DNA of 64,000 bases from the NCBI GenBank assembly GCA_963714425.1, contig CAVQOI010000001.1:286938-350937 (forward strand), given 5' to 3'. This DNA is from an uncultured Chloroflexia bacterium. Lineage in GTDB: Bacteria > Chloroflexota > Anaerolineae > Anaerolineales > UBA4823. A model generated the notes under the pieces. That model ran no database searches, had not been told where the DNA came from, and worked only from the letters and a program-made list of their open reading frames with translations. The translations under genes were made by a program, and so were the position numbers. This document shows, piece after piece, positions 2,284 through 55,898 of the stretch; within the stretch, counting starts at the first letter, position 1; every line of letters starts with the position of its first letter.

Positions 2284-3491
2284 TCAAGACGAGATATTTT
2301 CGAAGATGCCCGCAGCGCCCATGCCGCCACCAATGCACATGGAGACCATGCCGAATTGCACATCGCGGTGCTTCATTTCATAGATAAGCTGCGTGGTCAG
2401 CTTGGCGCCTGTGCAGCCCAGCGGGTGACCGAGGGCAATTGCGCCACCATTTACATTGGTAAGCTCTTCATCCAACCCGACTTCACGAACTACAGCGAGC
2501 GACTGCGCTGCAAAAGCTTCGTTCAGCTCGATGAGCTTAATGTCTTTCAGGGATAAACCTGCCAGCTTGAGCGCCTTAGGAATAGCAACCACCGGCCCGA
2601 TCCCCATGATCTCCGGGGGTACTCCTCCCACAGCAAAAGCCACGAAGCGTACCAGCGGCTTGAGCCCCAGCGCCTCGGCTTTAGCGCGGGACATGATGAT
2701 GACCGCCGCCGCCCCATCCGACATTTGCGAGGAGTTGCCCGCAGTGATGCTGCCGCCCTCCTTGAAGACTGGTTTTAACCTCGCCAAGGCTTCATAATTG
2801 GTGTCGGCACACGGTCCCTCATCACGAGAAAATGTAAAAGTATGCCGAGTGGGTTTTCCATTTCCGCTTGGCTCTACGAGCTCCACCTCAATCGGGGTAA
2901 TCTGCTCATCAAATCGACCGCTTTCCACGGCGGCTGAAGCGCGTTGGTGGCTGCGCAGCGAGAATGCGTCCTGATCATTCCGGCTGACCCCGTATTTTGA
3001 GGCCACGTTTTCAGCAGTCAGCCCCATATTCGTGAAGGATTGAGGGGCAAACTCAGCCAGGTAAGGGGAAGGGGAGAATTTAAACCCCGTCATAGGCACC
3101 ATGCTCATCGATTCGACCCCTCCTGCGATGGCACACTCCATCTGCCCGGCCATAATCGCGAATGCAGCATGAGCTATCGCTTGCACCCCGGAAGAGCAGA
3201 AGCGGTTGATCGTCTCGGCTGGGACAGAATCCGGTAAACCGGCGCGCAGCCCAACCAGTCGAGCCATATTCAAGCCCTGTTCACCTTCTGGGAAGGCGCA
3301 GCCAAGGATGAGATCGTCGATCTCAGCCGGGTCAACCGCGGGGCGCGGCTTAAGACTTCGCGGATGACTGCAGATGCCAGCTCGTCCGGTCGCACGGTAG
3401 CGAGACTGCCCTTTTTGGCTTTTCCAACCGCTGTACGTGTCGCGGCGACGATGACAGCTTGTTTGGATGATCCATTACTATTCAACATCAT
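2284..3491 (-). pseudogene. acetyl-CoA C-acyltransferase (thiolase) with one reading-frame break near 3335-3345
   Basis: ORFs 3270..3524 and 2284..3273 together make one full-length thiolase. The N-part reads [42 protein letters not shown]. It continues in another frame as [27 protein letters not shown]...NRFCSSG...GHPLGCTGA...CIGGGMG. The 1208-nt span is not a multiple of 3. SD AGGAGA lies 7 nt before ATG 3491. Confidence 0.8.
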
Positions 3492-3507
3492 CTTCTCATC
3501 TCCTGAT

Positions 3508-3540
3508 GGGACACGGAATAACACGGAAAAACACGGAAAT
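3508..3540. repeat. left inverted-repeat arm: three tandem 10-bp units ACACGGAATA/ACACGGAAAA/ACACGGAAAT
   Basis: Read directly at 3511-3540, preceded by GGG. The reverse complement of 4051-4082 aligns with 27 matches over 32 columns. Confidence 0.85.
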
Positions 3541-3593
3541 TGTTGATATTCCTTGTCTGCCCGAGAGCTCCGTTCCTTTAAGTTTAAATAATC

Positions 3594-4001
3594 CTATTGT
3601 TGTGTCCAATTCAGCGTCCCTTTGCGATCATTGTCGTACACTTTCCGAATAAAATGTGGCTTGGGTCCAAAATTGAGCAAGAGACCAACTTCGATGTGCG
3701 TAGCTTTCAAGTAGTTTAATAATTGGGCTTCGTGTTCTGGCGAGAGATGCCTGGTAGCTTTTAATTCCAGCATGACTAGATCATTCACCAAAAGGTCAGT
3801 AAAGTACTCACCTACAAGATTCTCCTCGTAATACACAAGGATAGGCTTCTGCTGGTCAACAGTTAATCCCGATTTCCTGAGTACGATTGCGAGCGTATTT
3901 TCATAGACCTTTTCGGTGAACCCATAGCCCAGCTGGTTGTATACCTGGAAGACCGCAGCAATGATCTTTTCGGTTAATTCGCTGTGTTTGCCGTCGAACA
4001 T
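3594..4001 (-). CDS. GxxExxY family protein (PD-(D/E)XK nuclease-like fold)
   Basis: 135-aa ORF. It has the motif GFTEKVY (G-x-x-E-x-x-Y) and a D...ELK core (DLLVNDLVMLELKA). Length and pattern match the GxxExxY / PDDEXK_3 type. Confidence 0.8.
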   Translation of the reverse strand: MFDGKHSELTEKIIAAVFQVYNQLGYGFTEKVYENTLAIVLRKSGLTVDQQKPILVYYEENLVGEYFTDLLVNDLVMLELKATRHLSPEHEAQLLNYLKATHIEVGLLLNFGPKPHFIRKVYDNDRKGTLNWTQQ

Positions 4002-4050
4002 ATCCTGCCGGGTCTCCTATGATCAAACTTAGCACATCAGAAGGATTGTA

Positions 4051-4082
4051 TATCCGTGTTTATCGGTGTTGTCCGTGTCCGA
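4051..4082. repeat. right inverted-repeat arm: TATCCGTGTT/TATCGGTGTT/GTCCGTGTCC
   Basis: Three tandem 10-bp units that are the reverse complement of the ACACGGA units at 3511-3540. The arm ends 1 nt before the fadN-like stop codon. Confidence 0.85.
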
Positions 4083-6503
<2,421 letters not shown>

Positions 6504-6576: not shown

Positions 6577-7446
6577 TTATACATTCGGTTCGATGATGAC
6601 AAAGTTATCAAAGAAGACTTCGAGGCCAGGTGTGCTGCCGGTCCTAACCACCAGCCCGACATCCCCTGATTCATAATCTTCGTCCTCCACCTCCACCAAA
6701 AATTGTCCGTTAGCAAAGAGCGTCAGCTGGTCGCCAATGCAGTCTGCCCGGATGCGGTTGGTTGCATCCCCACCGAGGATTGCTCCCGAAGGTGCGCTGC
6801 CTTGTGTGAGGAACTCAAATTCGCCATCCTGCACCTTACCAATGCCAGCCTCGCCAGCGCTGTTGATAAGCAGAAGATAGAAATTCTCCTCATCCACATG
6901 CCGGCAAACCAGCCCAAAATAGCCCTCCTCCGGGCCATCCAGGCGGGCGGCGTCCACTTCTAGGCGGATATCATCGTAGTCCTGCAGGCGCACGCTCCAG
7001 ACTGGAGCATTGCGGATATCTACTCGGATGACGTACCCATCCTCCTCGTAGCTCAAGCTGAAACGGTTGTTCTCTTCCGTGTACCAGCTCGATTTGCCCT
7101 CAAAATCTTCCTCGAAGATCACCCTCCCAGAGCTGGCAGTTGGCATTTGAGTGGCGGTGAGAGTAGGGGTCGCAGTGGGTGCAGGGGAAGGGGTGTCTGT
7201 AGGTACGAGGGTATCGGTGGGAAGCGCTGCCGGCAGCGTTGGTGTATCGCTTGGTAGAGCTGGCGCAGCCTGAGTCAAGCCTGCAACGATCGTCTCAGCA
7301 GCCTGGGTATATGCGGGGCCAGGATCGGAAGGCCGCGAAGAGATGCCCGGCAGGCTGCACCCAGCCAGGGTAATCGCGATGAGCAATTGGAGAGCTCCTG
7401 TGCGGGTGTGTCGTTTAGCTGATGCATTTATTTGCTTTCTCGTCAT
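6577..7446 (-). CDS. lipoprotein with Thr/Pro-rich linker and beta-sandwich-like C-terminal domain, function unknown
   Basis: ATG 7446 overlaps the upstream stop (ATGA). Lipobox LAGC after a hydrophobic h-region. Linker PTDTPSPAPTATPTLTAT. No catalytic motif recognised. Confidence 0.6.
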   Translation of the reverse strand: MTRKQINASAKRHTRTGALQLLIAITLAGCSLPGISSRPSDPGPAYTQAAETIVAGLTQAAPALPSDTPTLPAALPTDTLVPTDTPSPAPTATPTLTATQMPTASSGRVIFEEDFEGKSSWYTEENNRFSLSYEEDGYVIRVDIRNAPVWSVRLQDYDDIRLEVDAARLDGPEEGYFGLVCRHVDEENFYLLLINSAGEAGIGKVQDGEFEFLTQGSAPSGAILGGDATNRIRADCIGDQLTLFANGQFLVEVEDEDYESGDVGLVVRTGSTPGLEVFFDNFVIIEPNV

Positions 7447-8543
7447 TTCAACCACTCCGTAAAAAAATCTACCACACGTTGAATGAACAGCTGATTAGCC
7501 TCGCCCTGGAAGGTATGTGCCTGCCCCTGATAGATAAAACACTCTACACGCTTGCCCAAGTCCTCCAGCCGCTGGCAGGTGTCCTGCGACCAGGCAACAG
7601 GCACATCTGGATCTTGTTCCCCGTGGTGGATGCTCACGGCAGCCTGGACGCGATCCAAAGCATATACCGGAGAAATCCGCATCAGGACCTCATCGGGAGT
7701 GCTGAGCTCATCCAGACCGCGCTGGCGGTCGGAGAAATACTCGTAAATACGCTCGTAATTTAACCGCTCATCACCGCTCATTGCGCCATAAAGTACGGCT
7801 GCCCGCACATCCGGACTGACGGTAATCACTCGGGTGGTTATGCCACCGCCCATACTATGCCCCCACAAACCGATCGCATCTGGATTTGCATGCTCGAGTG
7901 GACCAGGTTGGCCTGCCTGTTGCTTGACCAGGGCGATCAGGTTGAGGACATCAATTGCCATTCCCACCCGAAAGCGATCGTCGCCATCATCGGAGGGGGC
8001 GTAGCCGCGCAGGTTTGGATGGATGACCAGAAAGCCATCCCGGGCAAGTGCGTCAGCGTAACCAGTGGTGTAGTCCAGTGTTGTGTAAATATCTGGATCG
8101 ATGTAGCCATGCAAAGCGATCACAACCGGCAGGGGCTCCGCGTTCTCTGGGTCTCGCCTTGGGGTATTCATGAAGCCATAGATGGTGAGGTCGTCGCTCG
8201 GATAGGCAATCAAGGTGCGCGTGAAGTAGCTGTTTTCCGCCAGCGTATCTTCAATACGCAACTCCCCGCCACCAAATTCCCGCCGGACCAGATGATCAAT
8301 CGTGTAAGGTTCAAAGGGGTCTGGAGTGGGCGAAATCGTGGGCGTTGAGGTTTGTGTGGGTACGAGCGTGTGGGTGATCGATGGGATGCTCGTCACACGC
8401 ACCTGCGGAGGAGCCAGCGTGGCAGGGAGAGTTACTGTGTCCTCAACCTGTATGGGTGTGGGCTGCGAACAGGCGACCATCAGGATGGCGAAGATGGAGC
8501 CAATAGCTATGTTAATGTGCTGAGTCCTTCTACCAGCCACCAT
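7443..8543 (-). CDS. alpha/beta hydrolase lipoprotein (S9 / dienelactone-hydrolase-like)
   Basis: N-terminal lipobox MVAC, a TP-rich linker, the nucleophile elbow GHSMGG, and a C-terminal HGEQD...H pattern. Confidence 0.75.
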   Translation of the reverse strand: MVAGRRTQHINIAIGSIFAILMVACSQPTPIQVEDTVTLPATLAPPQVRVTSIPSITHTLVPTQTSTPTISPTPDPFEPYTIDHLVRREFGGGELRIEDTLAENSYFTRTLIAYPSDDLTIYGFMNTPRRDPENAEPLPVVIALHGYIDPDIYTTLDYTTGYADALARDGFLVIHPNLRGYAPSDDGDDRFRVGMAIDVLNLIALVKQQAGQPGPLEHANPDAIGLWGHSMGGGITTRVITVSPDVRAAVLYGAMSGDERLNYERIYEYFSDRQRGLDELSTPDEVLMRISPVYALDRVQAAVSIHHGEQDPDVPVAWSQDTCQRLEDLGKRVECFIYQGQAHTFQGEANQLFIQRVVDFFTEWLK

Positions 8544-9858: not shown

Positions 9859-10953
9859 TTATACGATCGCCAGGCCGGTAAGCATGGCGATGCCGCGCCC
9901 GTTGCGCATCCACAGCTCGACCGGATGCTCGCGAATGTATCCATGCCCGCCCAGGATCTGCACGGCACGGTCGGTAACCGTCATTGCCATATCCACGGCG
10001 CCGGTGTGCGCCAGGTAAGCGTGCCGGGCAGCGTCTTCGTGGCTACCGTCCAGCATCCAGGCTGCTTCCCAGGTCAACAGGCGGATGGCTTCGACTTCAG
10101 TCGCCATTTCGGCGATCATGAAGGCAATTGCCTGCTTCTGCGCCACCTTGACGCCAAACACATCGCGATCCTTGGCGTAATCGCTGGCATATTCCAGGGC
10201 TGCTCGGGAGAGACCGACTGCCATGGCAGCCAGGGCGACTTGCGATGATGCTAGGATAGGCGCAAAATCGTGACCCTCGGGACCCCCCAGGCGGTTCTCG
10301 TGGGGGACATGCACGCCCCTGAGATTGAGCTTATACGTTGGTAAGGCTCGTATGCCCATTAATTTATCCCGCTCGCCAATCTCAAGACCCGGTGTATCGG
10401 TTGGGACGATAAATCCCTGGGTAGAGCCGTCCAGGCGGGCATAGACGATCATCTCCCGGGCATCTGCTGCGTAGGGAACGTATACCTTGTCACCGTTGAG
10501 CACATAGCTCCCGTTTTCGGAGGTCGCGTTGCAGCGTAGATCGTTCGGGTCGAAGTCATAGTAAGGCTCGACCAGTGCAGCGGTATAAGCCCTCCATTCT
10601 GCTTCAATAACTTCCGGTATGTACTTCTGTTTCTGCGCTTCGCTGCCGCTGAGCAGAATAGGTGTTGCGAAAAGCCCCGGCGCCAGAACAGCCATCGCTC
10701 CTGCCAGGTCACCCCAGGCAATCGTCTCGGCTGCCAGCGCTCCAGTTACTGCGGATCGCTCGCCGAAGCCGCCATAGGATTCGGGAATTGAGGCTTGCAA
10801 GTAGCCCAGCTCCCAGCCTTTCTCGATGATGGCTGGTGGAAAATGATCCTGCTCGTCGGCGTCGTGCGCGTTCGCGCGCAGGTCAGCCGAAGCGAAGCGG
10901 CTCATGGCATCCACGAGCATTTTTTGTTCTTCAGTTGGCTCAAATGAGAACAT
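9859..10953 (-). CDS. acyl-CoA dehydrogenase family protein, degenerate (non-catalytic-type) subunit
   Basis: ATG 10953 is preceded by AAGGAG. It has the ACAD fold, but TEPxAGSD is replaced by VEPYYDFD and YEGT by MLTG (Leu at about 9880-9882 where the Glu base is expected). Confidence 0.8.
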   Translation of the reverse strand: MFSFEPTEEQKMLVDAMSRFASADLRANAHDADEQDHFPPAIIEKGWELGYLQASIPESYGGFGERSAVTGALAAETIAWGDLAGAMAVLAPGLFATPILLSGSEAQKQKYIPEVIEAEWRAYTAALVEPYYDFDPNDLRCNATSENGSYVLNGDKVYVPYAADAREMIVYARLDGSTQGFIVPTDTPGLEIGERDKLMGIRALPTYKLNLRGVHVPHENRLGGPEGHDFAPILASSQVALAAMAVGLSRAALEYASDYAKDRDVFGVKVAQKQAIAFMIAEMATEVEAIRLLTWEAAWMLDGSHEDAARHAYLAHTGAVDMAMTVTDRAVQILGGHGYIREHPVELWMRNGRGIAMLTGLAIV

Positions 10954-49885: not shown

Positions 49886-50003
49886 CCTTGGCAATGACCT
49901 ACTCTCCCAGGGGGTCGCCCCCCAAGTACCATCGGCGCTGACGGGCTTAACGACCGGGTTCGGAATGTGGCCGGGTGTACCACCGTCGCTCCAATCACCA
50001 AGA
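49886..50003 (-). rRNA. rrf: 5S ribosomal RNA
   Basis: The reverse complement reads TCTTGGTGATTGGAGCGACGGTGG...CCGAACCCGG...GCGCCGATGGTACT...GAGAGTAGGTCATTGCCAAGGG, with the terminal helix closing. Confidence 0.9.
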
Positions 50004-50152
50004 GACAATTTCACAGTATTTTGTTTTGAATAAGCGCAGTGCAGTTAGACGAGTAGGGGATTCAATCCTTCGTTATAACGAATAGCGATTGACCACGCTC
50101 GTCTTTGCTCTTTCCTTTCGCATTTAGAAAAGTTTCGAGTTCTCCGCACCAC

Positions 50153-53127
<2,975 letters not shown>

Positions 53128-53359
53128 TCGTGATGCGGAGAAATCGAAACTTTTCTAGGCGCTTCTCAAAATTACTAAGAAGTCACCTTTCTTAATTATG
53201 CGCTTATTCAATTATTAAGGTACAGAACTATCGAGAGACAAAGCGACCCGGCAAACCGCCGGGTCACTTATCCCTTGCGATTTTACCTGGAAATTTGATT
53301 AAGTCTCGAAAAAATCTACCAAACTCAATCCTTTTGCTTTGTCTGGCCTCGTAGCCAGG

Positions 53360-53432
53360 TGGAGATGAGGGGACTCGAACCCCTGACTTCCGCCTTGCAA
53401 AGGCGGCGCTCTCCCAGCTGAGCTACATCCCC
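53360..53432 (-). tRNA. tRNA-Ala (anticodon TGC)
   Basis: The reverse complement is GGGGATGTAGCTCAGCTGGGAGAGCGCCGCCTTTGCAAGGCGGAAGTCAGGGGTTCGAGTCCCCTCATCTCCA. It folds as a cloverleaf with a G3:U70-type acceptor. Confidence 0.97.
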
Positions 53433-53445
53433 GTTTACCGAGGAG

Positions 53446-53519
<74 letters not shown>

Positions 53520-53658
53520 AGCTGACCGGGCCCTTAGCAACTGAGAAGTGATAGAAAACGGTCTGCTTTCAGGTGTCTCAACACCGCTGAAGAGACATGT
53601 TGTGAGTGGAGCCTCCTACCGCGCCACAAGGGCGCCAGAGGGAAGCTCAGTACTCGTA

Positions 53659-55167
<1,509 letters not shown>

Positions 55168-55472
55168 AACTTTATACGCACAGAGTGCGTTTGGTTACGG
55201 ATGTTCCTGAAAAGACAGGTTGTCGCTTTCTATCACTTTTCAGTTGTTAAGGTCCAGTCAATCAAGCGGGCTGGATTGTACCAGCCTCACTTGTGCCTGT
55301 CAAGGCTGAAACGATTGTTACACAGACGCAATCGCCGATGCCTAAACTCTCTGACATCGGCCCGTCAGACCATCAAGTTTTTAACTCAGGTCTCTGACGC
55401 AGGGGCGTCCTATTCAGTTGTTACCGGTCTGCCCACTTGGGCTAAACCTCAACTTGTAACTTCGCGTATTCT

Positions 55473-55513
55473 ATTATACCCGACCTGACAATTCTGTCAA
55501 GATATGATATTAT
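55473..55513. promoter_or_regulatory. overlapping back-to-back promoters for the rRNA operon (minus) and rnpB (plus)
   Basis: Minus strand: TTGACA (55500-55495), a 16-nt spacer, TATAAT (55478-55473). Plus strand: CTGACA (55485-55490), a 17-nt spacer, TATTAT (55508-55513). The two -35 boxes form the palindrome TGACA-ATTC-TGTCA. Confidence 0.6.
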
Positions 55514-55517
55514 CCGA

Positions 55518-55898
55518 CATGTCCAGGTCGGTCGGGCGATCGCGTTTTCCCCCTATGGGAGATCGAGGAAAGTCCGCACTCCAAAGAGCACGGCGCCGGG
55601 TAACACCCGGAGCGGGGTAACCTGCTGGATCGGGCTACAGAGATATACCGCCAGTAATGGTAAGGGTGAAAAGGTGGTGTAAGAGACCACCGGCGCACGC
55701 AGTAATGCGGGCGGCCAGGCAACCCCCGCCGGGAGCAAGGCCAAGCAGGAACGAATGAAACGGCTCGTTTCTCCACCCAAAAGGGTGTAAGTTCCGGGTA
55801 GGCTGCTAGAGCTGCGCTGAGAAGTGCAGACCAGAGAGATGATCGCCGAGGCGTTAACTCGCCCCACAGAATGCGGCTTACAGACCGGCCTGGAAACA
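55518..55898 (+). ncRNA. rnpB: RNase P RNA, bacterial type A
   Basis: GAGGAAAGTCCG at 55565-55576 and ACAGAATGCGGCTTACAG near 55866-55883. P1 pairs TCCAGGTCGGTC (55522-55533) with GACCGGCCTGGA (55883-55894). Confidence 0.9.

Follow-up and report, generated by a model that had tools for sequence, protein, structure and literature searches.

A GxxExxY nuclease gene between inverted arrays of 10-bp units as a candidate intervening cassette in a Chloroflexota fadN-thiolase operon

This study concerns a window of 64,000 nucleotides, the whole stretch of DNA that was analyzed, from contig CAVQOI010000001.1 of an uncultured Chloroflexia bacterium, and within it a segment (3509-4080) in which a 135-amino-acid (aa) GxxExxY gene is enclosed by two inverted arrays of short repeats between a fadN-like gene and a thiolase gene. 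With moderate confidence, we take this gene and its arms to be one copy of a widespread array-armed 'intervening cassette'. On an even balance of probability, the cassette would be similar to the intervening sequences (IVSs) of rRNA genes and evolutionarily mobile, with arms that are candidate recognition arrays, probably for its own nuclease, and that would also fold into a stem in the mRNA.

The plus-strand array at 3511-3540 reads ACACGGAATA ACACGGAAAA ACACGGAAAT, and the array at 4051-4080, which is inverted with respect to it, reads TATCCGTGTT TATCGGTGTT GTCCGTGTCC. Each consists of three units of ~10 bp with the core ACACGGA, as had been described in an earlier reading made from the letters of the window alone (the sequence-only reading). 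That reading had also aligned the two arms at 27 of 32 columns, and the same number was obtained here with a 1-nt gap. The unit spacing is 10+10 in the thiolase-side arm and 10+9 in the fadN-side arm, which results in a 1-nt bulge in the duplex. The ACACGGA heptamer is expected ~6 times by chance over the entire 64-kb window and occurs seven times, with five of these occurrences inside the two 30-bp arms, while phased chains of two general units occur at 0.12 per shuffled window. The segment has a GC content of 0.43-0.47 compared to 0.55-0.63 in the flanking genes, so the description of it as AT-richer was correct. Two distances had to be revised. The fadN-side arm, with GG at its outer end, starts 2 nt (TC) after the fadN stop codon at 4083-4085 and not 1 nt after it, and the thiolase-side arm stops 4 nt, not about 15 nt, ahead of the thiolase Shine-Dalgarno (SD) sequence (AGGAG, 3504-3500) and ~18 nt ahead of the start codon. 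The gene order on the minus strand is fadN-like, the 135-aa open reading frame (ORF), thiolase (start ~3491) and an SCP2 gene. No promoter- or terminator-like sites above chance were found inside the segment, no Rfam family matched the arms in a scan of the window, and no further copies of the GxxExxY gene or of the arrays were found within the 64 kb.

Outside the window, the arrays and the gene were found together in many unrelated operons and in several phyla, which agrees with the earlier statement that this is not a beta-oxidation gene and answers the call for a search for further copies. A metagenome scan with the GxxExxY alignment gave 80 loci whose proteins are 54-69% identical to that of the window. 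Only ~10 of these have the fadN context, and at nearly all of the others, too, the gene is flanked by units of ~10 bp in inverted arrays. Their general form can be written as (G)GAC[A/G]C[N]GA(T), or ACRCNGA, usually with GG before it at the outer end, and it occurs as the variants ACACGGA, ACGCGGA, ACGCAGA, ACGCTGA and ACACAGA. With a strict pattern, at least two phased units were found upstream of 59 of 89 GxxExxY genes, inverted units downstream of 51 and both at 41, compared to 2.3%, 2.5% and 0.6% of control windows, respectively. Reverse array polarity was rare (6 of 89), and nearly all of the genes that miss the strict pattern have looser unit variants.

The neighbors of the close relatives of the window copy include dnaX, nuoL, plsX and an SDR gene. 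The GxxExxY gene is co-directional with its upstream neighbor in 56 of 67 cases and with its downstream neighbor in 62 of 73, and the gaps are ~50-130 bp, so these cassettes sit inside operons. Cassettes with 80-91% identical proteins occur in non-homologous flanks. When locus L171 was aligned with L174, the similarity ran from the outer unit of one arm to the outer unit of the other, which argues that the arms and the ORF move as one unit. In L171 the arms are intact, but the GxxExxY ORF (~4060) is interrupted in frame by a TAG codon in place of the nearly invariant F17; either a sequencing error or a pseudogene may account for this. More distant members of the family, which gave more than 8000 close matches in one search, show related arrangements: ACRCRGAGG units in inverted arrays in Bacteroides finegoldii, a single ACACGGATTCG unit per side in Treponema, an adjoining GACGCGGAT hairpin in Gemmatirosa, and flanking arrays in a verrucomicrobial metagenome-assembled genome (MAG; L072). 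None of the 89 GxxExxY loci lies in an rRNA gene, and the suggestion in the sequence-only reading that this family occurs in rRNA IVSs is therefore unconfirmed. Among viral contigs, there was a single find of a GxxExxY relative and none of a PF05635 gene, and a phage gene family was rejected for this reason. One of the loci, L144, has at 7433-8240 a 16S gene (89% identical to that of the window) with an insertion of ~800 bp located ~44 nt from its 3′ end; the LAGLIDADG-like motif YFDAEGG occurs in a 195-aa ORF within this insertion, which has no relation to the array cassettes although one with a GxxExxY gene lies 3.5 kb from it.

Orthologous loci were fetched with the fadN protein as the anchor, and the closest homologues bear Chloroflexota/Anaerolineae names; gene calls in these loci are ORF heuristics. 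The comparison of relatives for an empty site, which had been proposed earlier, gave a presence/absence polymorphism at the identical site. The junction contains a GxxExxY orthologue with both arms in L002 (fadN 81% identical), L003/L004 (75%), L005 (73%) and nine metagenome loci, whereas it is empty in L211 (13-bp spacer), L207 (66 bp, no units) and L001 (fadN 85% identical). In three further, separate lineages (L206, L209/L210 and L222/L230), it contains a gene of PF05635 (23S_rRNA_IVP), a four-helix-bundle family. The conserved 5′ arm of the orthologues is GGACACGGA..ACNGA..ACACGGA, straight after the fadN stop, and the conserved 3′ arm is TCCGTGT..TCNGTG..TCCGTGTCC, straight before the thiolase ribosome-binding site (RBS). 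The L001 junction reads stop-TCCGTGTCCGTCCGTGTCC-CATCAGGAG, which corresponds to the final two units of the 3′ arm, and this two-unit remnant looks like a deletion footprint. The PF05635 genes at the junction have inverted arrays of their own, with AATTAGGA/TTAGGA upstream and TCCTAA downstream (unit TAGGR).

Neighbor-joining trees without support values were made for both proteins. In the fadN tree, the GxxExxY state is found on both deep branches, while the empty state (three times) and the PF05635 state (three times) appear at separate places, a distribution that indicates repeated losses and replacements by a different cassette. In the GxxExxY tree, the copies from the fadN site all group together, in a clade whose branching broadly agrees with that of fadN, and among these copies the proportion of nonsynonymous differences (pN) is 0.16-0.29 and that of synonymous differences (pS) is ~0.86, which is saturated. 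Because of the presence on deep branches, the congruent trees and the saturated pS, the junction cassette must be regarded as old, with its protein and arm units kept by selection. Judged from these comparisons, the cassette at this junction is old and mostly vertically inherited. The earlier statement that it is 'inserted' between fadN and thiolase thus holds for its placement but not for the recent event that the word implies.

Some of these loci show further features at the arms. In L003/L004 (5390-5650), a stretch made up of ~39 bp of the fadN end, the 5′ arm and the next ~70 bp is repeated in tandem ~2.5 times upstream of the GxxExxY gene, which suggests duplication or recombination activity at the arm. 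The PF05635 arm unit AATTAGGA closely resembles the ancestral empty junction ..GGAATTAAAGGAG.. made up of the fadN stop and the SD (L222/L230, 1470-1500; L211, 4920-4940), and in L222 the fadN stop codon and the first unit of the PF05635 arm overlap. These observations hint that PF05635 cassettes may be drawn to, or seeded by, unit-like sequence of the host.

The protein between the arms matched PF13366 (PDDEXK_3; E 1.3e-39, 135.6 bits versus a cut-off of 22) and TIGR04256 GxxExxY (E 7.8e-39, 132.6 bits versus a cut-off of 35), which confirmed the earlier statement that the arms enclose only a GxxExxY ORF with a PD-(D/E)XK core. Its residues G27-F-T-E30-K-V-Y33, D69, E79-L-K81 and Q93xxxY97 correspond to the GxxExxY motif and to the D, ExK and QxxxY positions that are invariant across 46 relatives, these being among the 34 invariant columns of the family alignment. 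An AlphaFold2 (AF2) model with a predicted local distance difference test (pLDDT) value of 89.6 was compared with Foldseek and resembled Cas4 SSO0001 and lambda exonuclease, and Hjc more weakly; the PDB searched by sequence gave nothing significant. The protein is therefore modeled as a minimal RecB-type nuclease core with predicted activity. The pN and pS values given above indicate that it is under strong purifying selection. The orthologues retain a good SD (GAGGAG or GGAGG, 5-8 nt from the start), so the protein is probably made. W132 is invariant, and the C-terminal N-W-T-Q codons (AAT TGG ACN CAR; window 3594-3610, and in the family generally) resemble the array unit TTGGACRCA; this likeness may be a coincidence, or the ORF end may belong to an arm.

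The arrays also occur without a gene. One genome per GTDB species was scanned for GGACACGGA-N4-5-ACNGA-N3-4-CACGGA, and at least 120 array stretches were found, compared to ~17 estimated by chance with our own arithmetic. The matches listed come from more than 10 phyla, among them Chloroflexota, Planctomycetota, Acidobacteriota, Verrucomicrobiota, Desulfobacterota, Nitrospirota, Lentisphaerota, Gemmatimonadota, Spirochaetota, Bacteroidota and Cyanobacteriota, together with a Methanoperedens MAG. In most of these listed matches, two arms of 3-4 units each form a compact inverted pair around a loop of 15-150 bp, and few of the matches enclose a GxxExxY gene; the separation of the arms is bimodal, with 20 cases at 150 bp or less, 14 at 351-650 bp and one between. 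The array hairpins are intergenic; 13 lie between co-directional genes, 7 between convergent and 2 between divergent ones. They are multi-copy per genome or contig with near-identical spacers and loops. Arrays were found on 32 IMG/VR contigs as well, and an Rfam scan of 19 hairpin loci gave no family matches.

Three further arrangements were noted. In locus L198 (1000-3600), a Uma2 gene whose arms consist of TCTCGAA heptamers comes first. It is followed by a second Uma2 gene, framed by three near-identical ORF-less GGACGCGGA hairpins, and then by a GxxExxY gene. On this single contig the GxxExxY arms are identical to the neighboring solo hairpins, and the GxxExxY gene runs with its final codons (L-N-W-T-Q, ..TTGGACGCAG) into the first unit of a complete hairpin. 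Contig L241 (IMG/VR) has at least four near-identical hairpins (546-630, 1115-1250, 6006-6119 and 9990-10103), each exactly between consecutive co-directional genes, and in one of them the loop nests a GC-rich terminator-like hairpin. Long tandem arrays of the same ACRCNGA-type unit in one direction, with no inverted partner within the stretch, were found in L055 (5029-5176, 16 copies, at the contig end), L067 (5836-5912, 8 copies), L045 (7094-7154, 7 copies) and L096 (5740-5806, 7 copies); one of these four belongs to a Kuenenia MAG.

The minus-strand RNA of 3490-4100 was folded, and the arms formed an imperfect duplex in both the minimum free energy (MFE) and the centroid structures, as the sequence-only reading had expected. 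The two arms taken as a mini-hairpin gave -38.9 kcal/mol (z -5.9), and stable stems were also predicted in the orthologues. Such stems are what would be seen if the main alternative held, namely that the segment is a host-serving intercistronic RNA element in which the mRNA stem acts as an RNase III site or stabilizer that uncouples fadN and thiolase expression, with the ORF as a passenger. Phage T7 intercistronic sites and the stabilizers formed by repetitive extragenic palindromic (REP) sequences are comparable elements. The adjoining of an arm to the thiolase RBS in all orthologues, the long vertical retention at the junction, the position of ORF-less hairpins between co-directional or convergent genes, and the hairpins at successive gene junctions of L241 all agree with this alternative. 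RNase III also cuts the stem of the Coxiella IVS (PMC4990558).

The substitutions in the arms argue otherwise. The two variable heptamer positions agree in 73% of comparisons between paired units, in 78% between units of one element that do not pair and in 45% between units from different elements, so each element or genome has its own unit variant, without compensation at the individual positions. Arm spacers showed weak palindromy (58% versus 48%). Among 60 cassettes, arm mismatches would yield 90 G·U and 95 A·C pairs in the sense RNA (p = 0.77), and 341 were transversions compared to 185 transitions; ~80% of arm positions are paired and ~20% mismatched. Tests for an RNA helix by covariation and by G·U bias were thus negative, with no compensatory changes. 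What selection has held constant, on the pattern of substitutions, is a sequence read once per ~10 bp and not the pairing, and the earlier suggestion of arrayed protein-binding sites as at transposon ends fits the data best, because the motif is conserved and the pairing is not. The heptamer itself is conserved across phyla, which a generic stem would not need, three relatives have no element at the junction at all, and the strong purifying selection on the protein argues that it is not a mere passenger. We consider a host-serving RNA element unlikely, although of the alternatives it is the one to be taken most seriously.

The gene-less hairpins bear on a further alternative, a partnership similar to that of REPINs, which are REP doublets, and REP-associated tyrosine transposases (RAYTs). 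Here the hairpin arrays would be what replicates, and GxxExxY would be a largely vertical caretaker nuclease that acts in trans and is flanked by cognate repeats. Among the array matches listed, ORF-less hairpins are far more numerous than those with an ORF, several near-identical copies occur per genome, the unit variant follows the element or genome as described above, and the gene is indeed flanked by cognate repeats with its protein under purifying selection. However, GxxExxY occurs in many copies and sites, each with its own arms, instead of as one gene per repeat family, the homology between copies ends exactly at the arms and hence the gene itself moves, and no Y1 (HUH) transposase is present. 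These points make such a partnership rather improbable in our estimation.

The arm motif differs with the enclosed gene: it is ACRCNGA with GxxExxY, TAGGR with PF05635 and TCTCGAA with one Uma2 gene, and the IVS of Coxiella with its S23p gene has GACAGAT heptamers (PMC4990558). Because the motif changes with the enclosed gene family, the arrays are most likely bound by the cassette's own protein, and the enclosed protein would be the simplest candidate reader of the units. Cargo-specific motifs would also be expected if the gene were an autoregulated accessory gene, for example a defense or toxin-like nuclease, whose arrays are (translational) operators and which spread by ordinary recombination or horizontal gene transfer. 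The conserved SD would suit such a gene, and the neighboring cargo family Uma2 matches the PADLOC candidate defense family PDC-S03. GxxExxY and PF05635 proteins, however, gave no match in PADLOC or PHROGs, an operator has no need of an inverted copy downstream, and the ORF-less hairpins and arm-bounded elements would be left unexplained. An autoregulated gene is therefore thought to be very unlikely. An operator array for a local regulator of the beta-oxidation operon, such as a TetR protein, has only its position inside a regulated catabolic operon in its favor and has a negligible probability, as does a chance repeat, since GxxExxY lies between such arrays in dozens of unrelated operons of several phyla, some orthologous operons have no arrays, and chance is excluded by the heptamer, spacing, shuffled-window and control-window counts. 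The TetR operator, which the sequence-only reading had named among the findings that would speak against its interpretation, was thus ruled out by the distribution across many contexts. CsrA-type GGA sites, DnaA boxes and response-regulator direct repeats were dropped because the motif is stem-paired, departs from their consensus sequences, and occurs across phyla with the cargo gene.

If the segment is an IVS-like mobile cassette, it would have neither promoter nor terminator of its own; its transcript would be that of the fadN-thiolase-SCP2 operon, while translation would start at its own SD. The arrays would be recognized by their sequence, at one site per helical turn and most likely by the protein of the cassette itself, and this protein-array pair would allow the arms and ORF to be copied to, or kept at, new intergenic sites together. 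The ORF-less hairpins would then be non-autonomous or empty forms of the cassette. In the mRNA, the arms would pair into an imperfect stem of ~30 bp that loops out the ORF, and by analogy to rRNA IVSs this stem probably makes the insertion tolerable, perhaps via RNase III cleavage between the cistrons. The binder of the units, the nuclease activity and its substrate, the copying mechanism and the RNase III processing are all inferred.

Several observations weigh against a mobile cassette. No transposase or recombinase is recognizable between the arms, where there is only the 135-aa nuclease, and the 64-kb window has one copy of the cassette. We know of no case in which a nuclease of this kind alone performs transposition. 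No consistent direct repeat that could be a target-site duplication was found at the borders of the compared loci; AATTAG on both sides of the element in L002 only is suggestive at most. At none of the three empty fadN junctions was there an ACRCNGA hairpin without an ORF, and homing into a hairpin already in place therefore lacks support here. Long vertical inheritance at the junction would fit a host-useful element as well as a selfish one. The co-variation of motif and cargo could stem from shared descent of the arms and the gene, and PF05635 is not a nuclease, so a rule that the cargo moves the cassette cannot hold alike for all three cargo families.

A broader interpretation is that GxxExxY, 23S_rRNA_IVP and some Uma2 genes are the cargo of one new class of mobile 'intervening cassette', in which each protein would recognize its own arrays and the cassettes would spread into operon junctions and rRNA helices without a canonical transposase, with the ORF-less hairpins of more than 10 phyla as non-autonomous forms. 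We propose this only tentatively and regard it as doubtful. If it were true, it would explain the movement of rRNA IVSs, a question since ~1990, and if the recognition of arrays by the enclosed protein were true, the pair could be a new minimal mobility or DNA/RNA-targeting module. GxxExxY and 23S_rRNA_IVP are very large and widespread families for which, to our knowledge, no function is known, and they now gain a concrete context in that each is paired with its own short-repeat array. The results also link rRNA intervening sequences to look-alike cassettes inside ordinary operons, describe ACRCNGA arrays as a cross-phylum family of periodic palindromic repeats outside Rfam, and provide a natural experiment in which one operon junction has been occupied, emptied and re-occupied by different cassettes. 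A search of the literature on GxxExxY, PF13366, PF05635 and Uma2, which covered open-access texts only and may therefore have missed a description, returned no array-flanked cassettes, and a search for the repeat string returned primer noise only. The array-armed GxxExxY cassette family thus seems not to have been described as such before.

The features of the window copy are listed in Table 1. The degenerate unit listed there is predicted to be able to pair with the outermost unit of the 3′ arm, which would form an alternative small hairpin just 5′ of the thiolase RBS.

Table 1. Features of the array-armed segment and its borders, in the direction of transcription
Feature	Position in window	Strand	Description
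fadN-like gene	6503-4083	minus	3-hydroxyacyl-CoA dehydrogenase/enoyl-CoA hydratase, 806 aa
fadN-like stop codon TAA (left junction boundary)	4083..4085	minus	ends the 806-aa gene 4083-6503
5′ arm (gene direction)	4051..4080	minus	GGACACGGA-c-AACACCGA-taa-ACACGGA; 3 units, spacing 9+10; kept in L002, L003, L005
Shine-Dalgarno-like AGGAG	4014..4018	minus	12 nt 5′ of the GxxExxY start codon
GxxExxY gene, 135 aa	3594..4001	minus	sole ORF between the arms; PD-(D/E)XK nuclease of RecB/Cas4/lambda-exonuclease type
Degenerate 5′-type unit GACAAGGAATATCA	3544..3557	minus	inverted repeat: 14 nt, 86% complementary, 20 nt apart
3′ arm	3511..3540	minus	ATTTCCGTGT-TTTTCCGTGT-TATTCCGTGT(CC); 3 units, spacing 10+10; kept in L002, L003, L005
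Thiolase RBS and starts (right junction boundary)	3486..3504	minus	AGGAG 3504-3500; ATG 3491-3489 and 3488-3486

Downstream of the cassette, the thiolase frame switches from -3 to -2 ~50 codons in, near a GGGG/CGCGG run (3333-3354, minus), and the gene is split into the ORFs 3270-3524 and 2284-3273; this could be an assembly indel or a real pseudogene. Elsewhere in the window (49886-55896), there is a full rRNA operon on the minus strand (5S, 23S, two tRNAs and 16S) and, on the plus strand, a gene for RNase P RNA. The 23S gene of this operon contains no intervening sequence.

The cassette was compared with five kinds of known systems. Integron cassettes are also promoterless small sense genes in a host transcript with imperfect inverted repeats at their borders, and an occasional tandem arrangement is seen here in L198. 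In contrast to integron cassettes, the arms lie on both sides of the ORF, there is no attC-type folded site with R and L boxes and no integrase context, and the cassettes are scattered in housekeeping operons. Free-standing homing endonuclease genes share the small nuclease gene and the presence or absence at an identical site, and persistence by reinvasion would be plausible. However, the arms travel with the GxxExxY gene and the cassette occurs at many different sites; since the same conserved protein is found at all of these, its target cannot be the host junction itself.

Transposons with terminal inverted repeats, such as the ends of Tn7 and Mu, and miniature inverted-repeat transposable elements (MITEs) likewise have several phased copies of a short site in their inverted ends, inter-copy homology that stops at the arms, and short derivatives without an ORF. 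They differ in that no DDE, serine or tyrosine recombinase and no definable target-site duplication are found here. In the REPIN-RAYT system, in which REP doublets go with a Y1 transposase (PMC3116915), there is also a gene with cognate palindromic repeats, many ORF-less intergenic hairpins that lie mostly between co-directional or convergent genes, genome-specific repeat variants and long vertical persistence. The cassette differs from it in its fold, for which the Pfam match is to PD-(D/E)XK only and not to HUH/Y1, in a multi-copy gene that is itself enclosed by the arms, and in arms that are arrays of 3-4 phased units instead of a single REP hairpin.

The closest known system is the ORF-bearing rRNA IVS, and the element is assigned to an IVS/MITE-like kind. 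The window cassette lies between protein-coding cistrons and not in an rRNA helix, and because it is outside an rRNA gene it lacks the defining feature of an IVS. Its cargo is a PD-(D/E)XK nuclease (PF13366) and not the four-helix bundle of S23p/PF05635, and its unit is ACRCNGA with a 9-10-bp period. The SD of GxxExxY is conserved and the gene is under purifying selection, in contrast to the Coxiella S23p gene, which is decaying and probably untranslated. RNase III cleavage is known for the IVS, while the stem here is predicted. The ORF-bearing IVSs of Leptospira and Coxiella have a sense ORF and a sporadic distribution, and their mobility has long been suspected (PMC4990558, PMC11270868); in Coxiella, the ORF lies inside an inverted-repeat stem with tandem heptamers that is cut by RNase III (PMC4990558). 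The cassette is similar to these IVSs in having a small sense ORF within a long inverted-repeat stem, tandem short repeats in the arm and no promoter of its own, in its sporadic presence and absence among relatives, and in the same suspicion of mobility. The likeness to rRNA IVSs that the sequence-only reading had pointed out therefore holds, since PF05635 array cassettes with the design of the Coxiella IVS occupy the same fadN-thiolase junction in three lineages of relatives.

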